The notes beneath the pieces are model-generated. The model saw only the letters and a program-made list of their open reading frames with translations, had not been told where the DNA came from and did not search any database. Below are positions 3,630 through 13,638 of a DNA stretch of 14,832 bases, one piece after another (position 1 is the first letter of the stretch; each line of letters starts with the position of its first letter). Location: IMG/VR virus record IMGVR_UViG_2703719369_000026; one strand, 5' to 3'. Origin of the DNA: a virus (lineage: Duplodnaviria; Heunggongvirae; Uroviricota; Caudoviricetes). A program made the translations under genes and the position numbers.

Positions 3630-3872
3630 ATGGGCAAAGAATATAAAACTCTCATTAACAAAGCACCTGAACGATTTTATTTTCGCTTAAGTGCATCAGG
3701 CGCTCATGCTGAACGTGCAGCCCGTGACTCATTGACCAGGGCAATCCGGAGTTTGTATGACGTTGCTTTTTACGCTGATGATCTGGATGCACTTAACGAA
3801 CTTTCCGAGCTGATCTGTGCCGCAGAATGCGGGGAACACATTGAACCATATAAGCTGGGGAATATCGCATGA
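3630..3872 (+). CDS. Hypothetical protein
   Basis: 80-aa ORF. Its stop overlaps the next start (ATGA at 3869-3872). Confidence 0.5.
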   Translation: MGKEYKTLINKAPERFYFRLSASGAHAERAARDSLTRAIRSLYDVAFYADDLDALNELSELICAAECGEHIEPYKLGNIA

Positions 3873-6274: not shown

Positions 6275-9097
6275 ATGACGGCAGAGTACATCAGGGACTG
6301 GCAACAACCGCGCCACGCAGTGGGGCGTGAAGGAACGGGGATCCCCGCTCCTGAATCCGCGCTTTCCTCCTGGCTGGATGCCTACCGGGTAGAGAACGAG
6401 CGCCGCCAGGAAATGGCTGATGCGGCGTTCTCCGCAACGCCGCTGGGCAACCTGATTAATAAAAGCCTGGACGCACAGGAAAAACAGGACAAAACCATCA
6501 CACTGGCAGGAGACGCCAGAAAACAGGCACGCGGTGCGGTGGATGAAGCCATGGCCTCGCTGCGCCTGCTGCCGTCCTATCTGCGCGATCCGCTTATTCG
6601 CCACCTCTCCTTCCTGCGCAAAAAACAGGAAGCCGATCGTCAGAAAGGCAAAAAGAGCTGGCAGGCTGAACGCTACGCGCGCGGAAACCTGCGCAAAATA
6701 TTCGAACGTCTGGAGCGCACCGATCACCGCTGGCTGACACAGGGTTATCGCTCCCTTGCCGGACGCGAACGCCTGGACGATTTGCTTTACCTGCCGCAGC
6801 TCAACAAACACCAGATACAGACGCTGGCCACCATGACGGCGGCGATGTTCAGCAGCACCTTCGAAAAACTCTGCGATGGCTTTGGCGCGACCGATGGCGA
6901 ACTGACCATGGATGTAACGCTGAAGGCGTATCAGATGCTGGCCCGCATGGCGTTACACCTGCACGCCATGCCTCCACATTATGACGCACTGACAACAGAC
7001 AAAGACCGGAGGAACGAACCGGACACGGAGCTGCTGCCGGGCGCAATCCTTCGCCTGACCTGTGCGGAATGGTGGAAACGCAAACTGTGGCTGTTACGTT
7101 GCGAGTGGAGAGAAGAACAACTCCGCGCCGCCTGTCTGGTTTCCAGAAAAACATCGCCCTATCTGAGCCAGGACGCGTTAAGCGAGTTTCGCGCACAGCG
7201 CGAGAAAACACGCGATTTCCTGAAAAGTTTCATGCTGGAAAACGAAGACGGGTTCACGATTGATCTCGAGACAGTGTATTACGCGGGAGTAAGTAACCCG
7301 GTTCACCGTAAGGCAGAAATGATGGCCACCATGAAGGGGCTGGAACTTCTGGCCGAAGCCCGTGGCGACAAAGCGGTGTTTCTGACTGTCACCTGCCCGT
7401 CAAAATACCACGCTACAACAGAGAACGGTCATCCGAATCCCAAATGGAACGGGGCCACCATGCGCGACTCCAGCGATTACCTGGTTAACACGTTTTTTGC
7501 GGCGGTCCGCAAGAAACTGAACCGCGACGGCCTGCGCTGGTATGGCATCCGCACGGTGGAGCCTCACCATGACGGCACCGTGCACTGGCATATGATGGTC
7601 TTTGCTCATCCGGAAGAAATCGACACCATTGTGTCCCACACCCGCGATATTGCCATTCAGGAAGATCGTCACGAGCTGGGCGATGATATTACTCCGCGCT
7701 TTAAGGCGGAGTATGTCGACGGCTCAAAAGGCACGCCAACCAGCTACATCGCCACCTACATCGGAAAAAACCTGGACAGCCGCGCCGTGGATGGCATCGA
7801 CCCGAAAACAGGCAAACCACGCGTTGACCACGAAACCGGAAAATCAATGACCGAGAGCGTGGAACGCGCCATTGGCTGGGCGCGCCTTCACCGGGTCCGC
7901 CAGTTCCAGTTCTTTGGCATCCCCTCCCGTCAGGTGTGGCGTGAACTGCGTCGCCTTGCCAGCCAGATGGCACGCAACCCGGAAGGCCCGCAACGGCTGA
8001 AGGATGACGCAATGGATGCGGTTCTTGCTGCCGCTGATGCCGGATGTTTTACCACCTACATTGAGAAACAGGGAGGCGTACTTGTTCCACGCAAGGACTA
8101 CCTGATTCGCACCGCCTACGACCTCGCAGATGAGCTGAACGATTACGGCGAACAGAGCGTACAGATTTACGGGATCTGGTCACCACTCATCGGGGAATCC
8201 TCCCGTGTGTGCACGCACCCGGATAACTGGAAGCTGGTAAGACGTAAACCGGGAGTAGAAGACAGCGCCCGCGAAAATGGTTTTGACCTTCAGGGCGGCC
8301 CTGCCGCCCCTTGGACTCGTGGCAATAACTGTCCCCGTGTACAGGAAACGGACAACAACGGGACAGAACAGCCGGAAGAACGGCCAGCACCGTGGCCGCA
8401 GCTTCCTGACGGCGTTGACGTGAACGAATGGATGCGCTCACTGAAACGGCACGAACGCCGGGCGCTGATGCGTTCGCTTCGTGACAAACAGGCAAAAAAC
8501 AGCAGTGATGAAATGCAGAGCTGGACACAGAGCCGCAAACAGCAGCGGCCTTTGCCTGATAACCACGAATTACTCGCTAAAGAATGGCGGGAGTCTGCTG
8601 AATCTCTCGGCCTGCATATCGGTGAACAACAGATGCAGCACCTGTTACGGGGCGGCAGTCTGTACGTTGACGGCAGCATCATTGCACCGCAGGGATTTGA
8701 AATTGTACGCAAACCGGATACCCGCCCGGACAGCCGAATCACGCAGCTCTGGCAGCGCCTGAGCCGTAATCATGGCGTAAGCAGCACGGAGATCCGCCAT
8801 AACCCGGTCGCCAGCTATCTGGCACAGCTGGGGGCATCAGACCCTGAAGCCGCCGCACGCCTGGCATCCACACTTCAGCAGGACCAGAACACCATGAAAA
8901 CACCCGTTACCGTGCTTTCTGACATGCTGCGCGCCATCCGCGACGCAGAGCACGCACAGAGAATCAGTGAAACCACTGAACGCGCCAGCCGCAAAGCAGA
9001 CCTGCTGCGGGGTGGCCTGACCAGTGGAAACAAAAAACAGACAGAAACGGGACTCACAAATCCCGTAAATGAGCAAAAAACGCGCCGCGATATATGA
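6275..9097 (+). CDS. Rolling-circle replication initiator/endonuclease, phiX174/P2 gpA superfamily
   Basis: 940 aa. HUH motif VHWHMMVF encoded at about 7580-7603, and a paired-tyrosine active site SYIATYIGK (YxxxY) with the tyrosine codons at 7745-7747 and 7757-7759. It is about 180 aa longer at the C-terminus than the roughly 760-aa P2 A protein. Confidence 0.88.
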   Translation: MTAEYIRDWQQPRHAVGREGTGIPAPESALSSWLDAYRVENERRQEMADAAFSATPLGNLINKSLDAQEKQDKTITLAGDARKQARGAVDEAMASLRLLPSYLRDPLIRHLSFLRKKQEADRQKGKKSWQAERYARGNLRKIFERLERTDHRWLTQGYRSLAGRERLDDLLYLPQLNKHQIQTLATMTAAMFSSTFEKLCDGFGATDGELTMDVTLKAYQMLARMALHLHAMPPHYDALTTDKDRRNEPDTELLPGAILRLTCAEWWKRKLWLLRCEWREEQLRAACLVSRKTSPYLSQDALSEFRAQREKTRDFLKSFMLENEDGFTIDLETVYYAGVSNPVHRKAEMMATMKGLELLAEARGDKAVFLTVTCPSKYHATTENGHPNPKWNGATMRDSSDYLVNTFFAAVRKKLNRDGLRWYGIRTVEPHHDGTVHWHMMVFAHPEEIDTIVSHTRDIAIQEDRHELGDDITPRFKAEYVDGSKGTPTSYIATYIGKNLDSRAVDGIDPKTGKPRVDHETGKSMTESVERAIGWARLHRVRQFQFFGIPSRQVWRELRRLASQMARNPEGPQRLKDDAMDAVLAAADAGCFTTYIEKQGGVLVPRKDYLIRTAYDLADELNDYGEQSVQIYGIWSPLIGESSRVCTHPDNWKLVRRKPGVEDSARENGFDLQGGPAAPWTRGNNCPRVQETDNNGTEQPEERPAPWPQLPDGVDVNEWMRSLKRHERRALMRSLRDKQAKNSSDEMQSWTQSRKQQRPLPDNHELLAKEWRESAESLGLHIGEQQMQHLLRGGSLYVDGSIIAPQGFEIVRKPDTRPDSRITQLWQRLSRNHGVSSTEIRHNPVASYLAQLGASDPEAAARLASTLQQDQNTMKTPVTVLSDMLRAIRDAEHAQRISETTERASRKADLLRGGLTSGNKKQTETGLTNPVNEQKTRRDI

Positions 9098-9173
9098 AGC
9101 GCGCACAAAACAGGCAAAAGCGGGATTTAAAAATCCTGTAACCGATTAATTAATCAACATAAGGAAAAGCGAC

Positions 9174-10133
9174 ATGAAAATTTGTATCGACGACGGCTCC
9201 ACCAACATCAAGCTGGCATGGACTGAGAACGGCGAACGCCGCAACGCCATCAGCCCGAACAGCTTCAAGTCGGAATGGTCTGCGCCATTCGGTGGCACGC
9301 AGCCCGCGAACTACATGCTTGATGGCGTGCGCTATGGTTTTGATCCGGTCAGCGATCGCTTTGTCCAGACGACCGACACGCAATACCAGTACAGCGATGT
9401 GAATGTAATTGCCATTCATCACGCGCTGGTCAAATCAGGCATCACACCACAGGAAGTGGATGTGGTTGTCACCCTGCCACTGAGCGAGTATTTCGATACA
9501 AACGCACAGCCGGACATGGCCAACATCAACCGCAAAAAAGCGAACGTCATGCGCCCGGTGGAGTACCAGAACGGCGAAGCATTCACTATCCGTAACGTAC
9601 GGGTTATGCCTGAATCCATTCCTGCTGGCTTTAAGGCACTGGCTGACATGAGTCCGTTTGAATCCCTGCTGATTGTGGATTTGGGCGGAACCACGCTGGA
9701 TGTGGCAAAGGTTCAGGGGCAACTGGCAGGTATCAGCCAGGTGTTTTGCGATCCACACGTAGGCGTTTCTCTGATGGCCGATGCCGTACTGTCGGTGATG
9801 GCCACTAACGGTATGCGCACCAGTCACCACATCGCCAATACCATTATCGAACATCGCCATGATGAAGCCTGGCTGCGCCAGCACATCCACAATGACGCGC
9901 ATTACGCCAGCCTGATGGCGGTTATTCGTGAAAAGGAAGAAACACTGAAACAACGCGTGATCCGCGCGCTGGCGGTTTTTTCGGGTTACGGGCGGGTGAT
10001 GGTTGTCGGTGGCGGGGCGGAGATTGTGGCAACCGCTATCCGCGAAGCCTGCGGAGTTAATGCGACTTTCATCGCGGACGGGGTGCCACAGTTTGCTCTG
10101 GTTAATGGGTTGTACGCAATGAACAAGGAGTAA
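9174..10133 (+). CDS. parM: ParM/StbA actin-like segregation ATPase (type II partition)
   Basis: 319 aa, alignable by eye along its full length to R1 ParM. Actin-fold motifs are present: IDDGSTNIKL (phosphate-1), VDLGGTTLD (phosphate-2) and VVGGGAE. AAGGA ribosome-binding site. Confidence 0.92.
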   Translation: MKICIDDGSTNIKLAWTENGERRNAISPNSFKSEWSAPFGGTQPANYMLDGVRYGFDPVSDRFVQTTDTQYQYSDVNVIAIHHALVKSGITPQEVDVVVTLPLSEYFDTNAQPDMANINRKKANVMRPVEYQNGEAFTIRNVRVMPESIPAGFKALADMSPFESLLIVDLGGTTLDVAKVQGQLAGISQVFCDPHVGVSLMADAVLSVMATNGMRTSHHIANTIIEHRHDEAWLRQHIHNDAHYASLMAVIREKEETLKQRVIRALAVFSGYGRVMVVGGGAEIVATAIREACGVNATFIADGVPQFALVNGLYAMNKE

Positions 10134-10137
10134 ACCA

Positions 10138-10452
10138 ATGACGACACCAACCAGACGGATAAGTTTCTATCTGAAGCCCGCCGCCGTCAAGAGTGAACAG
10201 GAGGCGTGCAATTACCTCGATAGCCTGCCAGCCTCCGAACGCAGCCGCGCGCAACGCGCGGCCTTTCTGGCTGGGCTAGCACTCATAAAGCGCAACCCAG
10301 CATTTGCCTACTGGATGGCCGAATGGCCAGAGGACAACCTCCCCTTCAATACCGTTAGCATCAAGGAAACATACCAGGCTAATCAGCCTAGCGGAGTTGA
10401 ATGCAATTTTTATAAAATAAAAAAGAATATTCAGACCTTATTCCCAGAATAA
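10138..10452 (+). CDS. parR: ParR/StbB centromere-binding adaptor
   Basis: 104 aa starting 4 nt after the parM stop. The N-terminal RHH region (ISFYLKPAAV ... LDSLPASERSRAQRAAFLAGLAL) matches the R1 ParR pattern. Confidence 0.85.
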   Translation: MTTPTRRISFYLKPAAVKSEQEACNYLDSLPASERSRAQRAAFLAGLALIKRNPAFAYWMAEWPEDNLPFNTVSIKETYQANQPSGVECNFYKIKKNIQTLFPE

Positions 10453-10471
10453 TCTGATAATTGTATGTGAA

Positions 10472-10926
<455 letters not shown>

Positions 10927-10979: not shown

Positions 10980-11369
10980 TTATCTGAATTTATCATGCCC
11001 CTCAACTCTGATTTTATTCATCTTGTTTACCGAATCGGGTATATCTGATAACTGTCCCGATAAGACTTTTTGTTTCGCCAGCATAATCTCTTTTTCAAGC
11101 TTTTGAAGTTCTTTTATATAGTCATTCTTCCCTTCTTCATCAGCCGGTGAAATGCTCTCAGGAAGACGCTTCATTGACTCATCTACAGCATCATCCATTC
11201 TGTCAAGAGCTTCAAGAAGCTCCTTTTTATCCATTGATGACTGAAGTACACTCATATTCCTTGCAAGAACTTGCATGCTTTCATCAAGTTCTTCTGCCAC
11301 TGTAATCCCCCCACACAAAAAATATAATGCCATACCACAGCTGATTATAACTTTATTGCTTTTCTGCAT
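10980..11369 (-). CDS. cybC: Cytochrome b562 family protein (periplasmic, four-helix-bundle haem protein)
   Basis: 129 aa with a signal peptide. A Met near the mature N-terminus (AEELDESMQVL) and a C-terminal His (EGHDKFR) parallel the Met and His haem ligands of E. coli cytochrome b562. AAGGAG ribosome-binding site. Lies 43 nt downstream of the catalase-peroxidase gene. Confidence 0.75.
   Translation of the reverse strand: MQKSNKVIISCGMALYFLCGGITVAEELDESMQVLARNMSVLQSSMDKKELLEALDRMDDAVDESMKRLPESISPADEEGKNDYIKELQKLEKEIMLAKQKVLSGQLSDIPDSVNKMNKIRVEGHDKFR

Positions 11370-11412: not shown

Positions 11413-13638
<2,226 letters not shown>

Follow-up and report, generated by a model that had tools for sequence, protein, structure and literature searches.

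The textbook model of DNA segregation in bacteria is ParMRC, whose centromeres have been described as arrays of iterons onto which a helical ParR scaffold is loaded; parC of plasmid R1 consists of 5+5 direct 11-bp iterons. For a phage that integrates, a need for partition is not obvious. We analysed a 14,832-nt stretch of DNA (IMG/VR record IMGVR_UViG_2703719369_000026, at its full length called the window below) that contains the remnant of a P88-like prophage (Xuanwuvirus, Peduoviridae, P2-like; 96–98% identity to P88-like phages), in which a predicted parM–parR partition cassette follows the replication gene gpA. Directly upstream of parM, at positions 9031–9141, we found a pair of repeated dyads, and we think it moderately likely that this region is the ParR site of a phage-borne type II ParMRC cassette, equivalent to parC and serving as its centromere and probably also as its operator. 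Our literature search found no paper on P88-type parMR.

The R1 segregation complex is bipartite, with two separately loaded iteron blocks flanking an unbound spacer (PMC2241845). The R1 and NR1 proteins are clear homologues of those in the window (the parM product matches the R1 ParM structure 1mwk with E=7e-93 over residues 2–316, and ParR falls in PF10784), and their parC resembles the candidate site in lying immediately upstream of parM, in having two blocks and a spacer, although protein binding to the phage blocks is a prediction, and in being rich in A-tracts phased at about 10.5 bp (PMC2241845). The candidate site differs from R1 parC in that each block has one inverted GGG-N10-CCC dyad where R1 has five direct repeats, the distance between blocks is 73 bp as opposed to ~94 bp centre to centre, and the spacer has no strong promoter but holds the gpA stop codon; moreover, its host is an integrating P2-like phage, whereas R1 is a plasmid.

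A precedent for palindromic ParR-bound sites is provided by the chromosomal cParCMR of C. botulinum, in which gel shifts showed that ParR binds a site of palindromic repeats (PMC12270681). This site shares with ours the use of palindromes rather than direct iterons and its location on a non-plasmid replicon, but the proteins are unrelated in sequence to those of the window and its three palindromes are drawn after parR (PMC12270681). A plausible functional analogue, judged by analogy, is AlpAC/alpS of the Corynebacterium prophage CGP3, where an actin-like filament and an adaptor on repeats near the operon act in phage DNA transport and replication and not in plasmid inheritance (PMC4446434). 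Both cassettes are prophage-encoded and pair an actin-like protein with a DNA adaptor, a putative one in the window, whereas in CGP3 the adaptor gene comes first, alpS comprises 24 short TTAAnnG repeats and the actin-like protein belongs to another family (PMC4446434). The function of AlpAC was tested experimentally (PMC4446434), whereas that of the cassette in the window is predicted from its sequence.

A bipartite dyad repeat upstream of parM

The genes in the window run in the order gpA, parM, parR. ParM is an actin-like ATPase of the kind that defines type II cassettes, and the small gene directly 3′ of it has the predicted features of a ParR adaptor, namely an N-terminal ribbon-helix-helix fold (residues 6–58 align with pB171 ParR, 2jd3, at E=0.012) and a ParM-binding tail. 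The protein is conserved at both ends, in the N-terminal strand TRRISFYLKP and in the C-terminal tail NIxxLFPE, the latter being kept in all variants and in the plasmid homologues.

An earlier, sequence-only reading of the 76-bp gap between gpA and parM and of the adjoining gpA end had pointed out a near-perfect palindrome GGATTT-AA-AAATCC (9123–9136), a TTAATTAA palindrome (9146–9153), an inverted repeat ACGGGA-N8-TCCCGT and several CAAAA(A)AC tracts, and had found palindromes here instead of an iteron array. The gap and all of these elements are where that reading placed them (CAAAAAAC occurs at 9031 and 9075, and CACAAAAC at 9104). The palindromes are jointly, however, one bipartite direct repeat rather than independent oddities: both inverted repeats belong to copies of a single ~38-nt sequence (unit 1, CAAAAAACAGACAGAAACGGGACTCACAAATCCCGTAA; unit 2, CACAAAACAGGCAAAAGCGGGATTTAAAAATCCTGTAA), which agree at 30 of 38 positions, with 73 bp between their starts and with GGATTT-AA-AAATCC falling inside the dyad of unit 2. 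The site is thus still repeat-based, with two long dyad units and not ten short iterons. Each unit spans ~40 bp and consists of an A-tract leader followed by a GGG-N10-CCC dyad, and since 73 bp corresponds to seven helical turns, both units lie on the same face of the DNA.

The repeat stands out clearly from its background. The lag-73 base autocorrelation has z=6.1, a value matched by none of 2000 shuffles, and none of 500 shuffles produced a 38-mer repeat with 30 matches. The region is A-rich, short palindromes are common, and 10 of 200 window shuffles contained two matches to the dyad pattern when two mismatches were allowed, but given the shuffle results for the full repeat, and the recurrence of the same geometry in two lineages of otherwise unalignable sequence (see below), we regard it as extremely improbable that the repeat and its palindromes are due to chance or are the neutral remnant of an old duplication.

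Unit 1 is located within the final 22 codons of gpA (Table 1), so the candidate centromere would be atypical and would overlap the replication gene, as the sequence-only reading had considered possible. That reading had also described phased A-tracts, and these are real: AA dinucleotides show a periodicity peak at 10.4 bp, reached in 2 of 1000 shuffles of the window and 5 of 1000 of P88, and in 0 of 1000 for an R1-type parC control, so that the window shares phased A-tracts with R1-type parC. Downstream of unit 2, 10–13 bp past the dyad and ~15–20 bp ahead of the parM start, lies an ATTAAT(C/T)AA box that is the conserved element at this position; the TTAATTAA palindrome it includes is present in the window but is not conserved as such. 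This box is possibly a weak −10 region.

Table 1. Coordinates of genes and of elements upstream of parM in the window
Feature	Position	Strand	Details
Integrase	1–1002	minus	First gene; followed by repressor-like and early genes
gpA replication endonuclease	6275–9097	+	Phage_GPA, E=2e-131; stop TGA at 9095–9097
Repeat unit 1	9031–9068	+	A-tracts CAAAAAACAGACAGAAA, then dyad ACGGGA-N8-TCCCGT (9047–9066)
Spacer between units	9069–9103	+	Holds the gpA stop and a GC-rich/ATATAT segment
Repeat unit 2	9104–9141	+	CACAAAACAGGCAAAAG, then dyad GCGGGA-TTTAAAAA-TCCTGT (9120–9139)
Conserved ATTAAT(T/C)AA box	9145–9157	+	Includes TTAATTAA; aligned in distant relatives
AAGGA ribosome-binding site and parM ATG	9161–9176	+	ATG at 9174
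parM, actin-like partition ATPase	9174–10133	+	319 aa; Pfam StbA_N, E=1.8e-82; ParM C-terminal domain, E=3.5e-69
parR, predicted ribbon-helix-helix adaptor	10138–10452	+	104 aa; Pfam PF10784, E=7.7e-29

No iterons of 10–11 bp had been seen in the sequence-only reading, and four further searches agree with it. The lag-11 base autocorrelation upstream of parM is not significant, and a position matrix derived from 20 iterons in two R1-type plasmids gave no match at or above 6 bits in 9020–9150. The program TRF called no tandem repeat upstream of parM; it recovered an R1-type control array (period 11, consensus CCAAAAACAAC), but its sensitivity is limited, since the iterons of one plasmid control were missed. 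Together with a crude 7-mer cluster scan, TRF revealed no conspicuous array, either in the window or across the whole P88 genome. The 5+5 direct 11-bp iterons of R1-type parC are therefore not found here. By eye, the CAAAAAC tracts and the CCC/A-tract half-sites are similar to the core of the R1 iteron, CCCAAAAAC, to which the right half-sites CCCGTAAAC (in Hafnia, CCCAAAAAC) can be compared. We considered whether R1-like iterons are hidden in these tracts and rejected the idea given the empty matrix scan and the flat lag-11 signal, keeping the similarity as a resemblance only.

The region also differs from R1-type parC in that no par promoter was found between the repeat blocks. No sigma-70-like site was called in 9030–9173, where weak promoters are possible, and neither a scan nor inspection by eye found an Ogr-type TGT-N12-ACA site or a consensus promoter. 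Transcription of the parMR cassette may continue from gene A, or may start at a weak promoter located at the ATTAAT box beside dyad 2.

The sequence-only reading had allowed for a centromere elsewhere, which our comparisons do not bear out. No further copy of the dyad was found in the window, and in the full P88 genome neither an iteron array nor an extra close dyad copy was found. A position 3′ of parR was rejected because nothing there is conserved: the downstream sequences are unrelated among phages with near-identical ParM and ParR N-termini. We likewise rejected a P2-type replication origin at 9030–9173. The P2 nick site GCGCCTCGGAGTCCTGTCAA, located inside gene A, has no match in the window within three mismatches, but a nick-site homologue lies inside gpA at ~8296–8332, ~720 bp upstream of the dyads, so the dyad region is not the origin. 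This stretch reads GGCCCTGCCGCCCCTTGGACTCGTGGCAATAACTGT in the window and GGCATCGCCGCGCCTCGGAGTCCTGTCAATAACTGT in P2, and aligns with the annotated P2 nick site at the protein level.

Conservation of the dyad pair and its association with ParR type

We compared the 160 bp upstream of parM in 85 loci with ParM at least 97% identical to that of the window, which comprise 52 haplotypes. Both copies have ACGGGA-N8-TCCCGT as their consensus dyad. The GGG/CCC cores of this dyad and the A-tract leader are near-invariant, the exceptions in the cores being one ACAGGA variant and a CCT allele of dyad 2, and variation is concentrated in the spacer (where the fraction of variable positions, 0.43, is the highest of the segments compared), in the dyad loops and at the outer arm positions. 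In copy 2, the majority form reads ACGGGA-TTTCAGAA-TCCCGT. The form in the window, GCGGGA-TTTAAAAA-TCCTGT, is a common natural allele found in ~17 of the 85 loci and independent of ParR type, with no linkage detected between it and the two ParR types among E. coli phages; we therefore discarded the idea that copy 2 has decayed in a dead prophage.

ParR itself is mosaic in these relatives (L001–L089) although their ParM proteins are 98–99% identical. Residues 1–18 and the C-terminal NIxxLFPE are fixed, residues 19–64 occur as two types, and the linker (approximately residues 65–95) is hypervariable, with at least six unrelated versions. This mosaicism could possibly reflect the avoidance of incompatibility, or recombination at the moron border.

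An independent test was offered by P2-like phages of Hafnia (L090) and Plesiomonas (L092), since the pattern and spacing had been fixed beforehand from the E. coli type. Their ParM proteins are 62% identical to that of the window, and the order early/replication genes, parM, parR, morons, portal is kept. Each locus has a single strict GGG-N10-CCC pair at a distance of 71–74 bp, invariably just ahead of parM (P88, 8731/8804; Hafnia, 3873/3946; Plesiomonas, 3870/3942), and the distance between dyads in the two distant phages is 72–73 bp; shuffled loci contained such a pair anywhere in 5 of 2000 and 3 of 2000 trials. In a MAFFT alignment both dyads align without gaps between the E. coli type, Hafnia and Plesiomonas, and the invariant columns cluster at GGGA..AA.CCC, once in each dyad, including that of unit 1, and at the ATTAAT box, in flanks that are otherwise unalignable. 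The dyad pair is the sole non-coding feature conserved across the three distant lineages, and the divergence of the surrounding sequence disfavours a recent transfer of the same DNA to Hafnia or Plesiomonas. The open reading frame tails that overlap unit 1 are unrelated, being two different gpA C-termini and, in Hafnia, the end of a 167-aa frame. Constraint on the encoded proteins thus fails to account for the conservation, and the element goes with parM, not with gpA.

This comparison bears on whether the dyads act as RNA hairpins in an early gpA–parMR transcript, as a processing or stability element or by controlling translation or attenuation between the two genes. Transcription probably runs through the region, since no promoter was called between gpA and parM, the plus-strand folds of the E. 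coli type reach −8.8 to −10.7 kcal/mol (z −2.3 to −3.3), and both arm substitutions of copy 2 (A to G and C to T) still pair as G-U on the plus strand. In Hafnia and Plesiomonas, however, just a 3–4 bp GGG/CCC stem with a 10-nt loop is retained, the fifth pair (A-U) becomes A.A or U.U and the outer pair is twice C.A, and the fold energies of Hafnia copy 1 and Plesiomonas copy 2 are indistinguishable from those of shuffled sequences. The P88 dyad carries an arm change, TCCCGC, that breaks a pair, and no Rfam family matched. What is conserved is the identity of the half-sites, their exact spacing and the 72–73 bp between units, which fits a protein–DNA geometry, and we consider an RNA function quite improbable.

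Intrinsic termination on the minus strand, directed against antisense transcription from the moron region, is less probable still, and we assign it very little weight. A terminator-like site was called at 9066–9047 (minus), followed by TTCTGTCTGT (TTTTTG), and copy 1 folds on this strand with −10.2 kcal/mol, but copy 2 folds no better than shuffles (z=+0.6), unit 1 of Plesiomonas has no A-run ahead of the dyad and hence no minus-strand T-tail, and no minus-strand gene lies within 1.3 kb downstream. A hairpin with a T-run was thus seen for copy 1 on the minus strand only, where it is not conserved, and for neither copy on the plus strand.

The sequence-only reading had suggested a comparison with the parC regions of close ParR homologues, and here the dyad pair recurs in lineages that share the N-terminal ParR strand TRR(I/V)SFYL, which is common to all three dyad-pair lineages. 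Scans of viral, genome and metagenome sequences yielded no further TRR-type lineage, returning only E. coli-type relatives or phages whose ParR begins with NRKISFYL. These NRK-type phages (L093 and L094 from Serratia and Enterobacter; L099 and L102, uncultured metagenome-derived contigs) have a different upstream element, a single ~66-bp palindrome. It consists of GGGAACGAnAnAGAAAAAT, a GC-rich centre of 22–26 bp and an inverted copy, and is located at 3870–3950 in L093. Their P2-like cassettes share with the window the order early/replication genes, parM, parR, morons, portal, an upstream element that is dyad-symmetric and not of iteron type, and, with the P88 type, the left motif CAAAAACGGGA; they differ in having one long palindrome as opposed to two short dyads 73 bp apart and an NRK rather than a TRR strand. 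We interpret the NRK-type palindrome, on the sequence evidence, as a second non-iteron design in phage-borne ParMRC.

The plasmid homologues L095–L097 (Pantoea, E. coli and Cronobacter) and the R1-like L005 and L006 have classical ~11-bp iterons flanking a promoter. Across the few lineages compared, the type of site tracks the type of ParR, the pattern expected of a ParR-binding site. In the Pantoea plasmid L095, which has a parMR homologue, an array of about ten 7-bp TTCATAC repeats at 2097–2244 also lies beside a ParA-family gene and presumably serves as the centromere for a second partition system, of type I.

These associations also weigh on the possibility that the dyads bind a different protein (a phage regulator, gpA in accessory binding or a host factor), or that they form a ParR operator with no centromere role, ParMR acting elsewhere or partition having been lost. 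In two lineages the site extends into the end of the replication gene, P2-like phages integrate and have no obvious need for partition, and two dyads are very few sites for a centromere. Even so, in Hafnia and Enterobacter-type phages the frame upstream of parM is not gpA and the par-proximal element still adjoins parM; NRK-type phages with gpA lack the dyad pair; and the P2-type nick site lies well away from the dyads. Among 242 viral contigs encoding a relative, the best 80 have an intact ParM that is 97–100% conserved, and conservation extends to the ParM-binding tail of ParR, which argues for a working cassette. We therefore regard this explanation as unlikely.

A candidate two-dyad centromere

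The best reading of the region, as judged from the sequence comparisons, is a bipartite, dyad-type, parC-like site that overlaps the 3′ end of gpA and, like R1-type parC, lies directly upstream of parM. On this reading ParR would bind the dyads, which would function as a centromere and in autoregulation. Dimers of ParR would place their N-terminal β-ribbon (TRRISFYL) on the GGG/CCC half-sites, with one dimer of dimers per dyad, and two loaded dyads together with a bent spacer could form a compact segrosome. The C-terminal tails (NIxxLFPE) would then capture the ends of ParM filaments, which would move or position the circular phage genome, and occupancy of dyad 2 beside the ATTAAT box may also damp par expression.

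Several observations weigh against this assignment. The number of ParR dimers loaded by two dyads would be far below that for any characterised parC, and the inverted GGG/CCC half-sites are 13 bp apart centre to centre, compared with the usual 10–11 bp register of ribbon-helix-helix arrays. The R1 iteron matrix scores nothing at the site, so binding specificity is not transferable from R1, and the case for an operator role is weak because no consensus sigma-70 promoter was found. The second dyad of the window is degenerate (CCT instead of CCC), the phasing of A-tracts is absent in Hafnia and Plesiomonas, and the comparative support comes from only three independent lineages.

Prophage context and implications for P88-type phages

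The early operon of the window is headed by a small gene for an Arc-like ribbon-helix-helix repressor (2531–2737; PHROG 3431, E=4e-27), at a position where P88 is annotated with a Cox-type regulator, so the immunity/early region of the window differs from that of P88. On the other side of the cassette, an IS629/IS3-family transposase remnant on the minus strand (10453–10822, including a masked run of N at 10697–10739) ends the prophage 32 bp past the parR stop, and the late and structural phage genes are all missing. Beyond it lie genes for cytochrome b562 (10980–11369, minus) and a 736-aa catalase-peroxidase (11413–13623, minus), an arrangement that recalls the one around katP in large virulence plasmids of E. 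coli. The window matches part of a 438-kb plasmid record from E. coli (NZ_CP114132.1) with 100% identity. Another record, NZ_CP148288.1 (L104), is a complete P88-like genome deposited as a 34.5-kb circular non-mobilizable plasmid, in which integrase, Cox, gpA, parMR and hok/gef are present along with the full set of structural genes; the record may represent either an episomal prophage or the assembly of an excised circle.

For the wider biology we can offer a tentative and somewhat doubtful proposal, namely that P88-type phages, and other Peduoviridae with parMR after gene A, attach their circular genome to ParM filaments by means of a minimal two-dyad centromere, either in a low-copy plasmid state or for an AlpAC-like positioning of replicating DNA after induction. 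The analysis provides a defined 110-bp fragment and six-base targets, the GGG/CCC triplets, and it implies that annotation of parC by iteron search will miss dyad sites of this kind. If the proposal is true, two ParR-bound dyads would suffice to cap a ParM filament, in a segrosome much smaller than any described. Such a site would test how few ParR dimers the end of a ParM filament needs, and what role an actin-like motor has in a normally chromosomal phage of a family that is common in E. coli.

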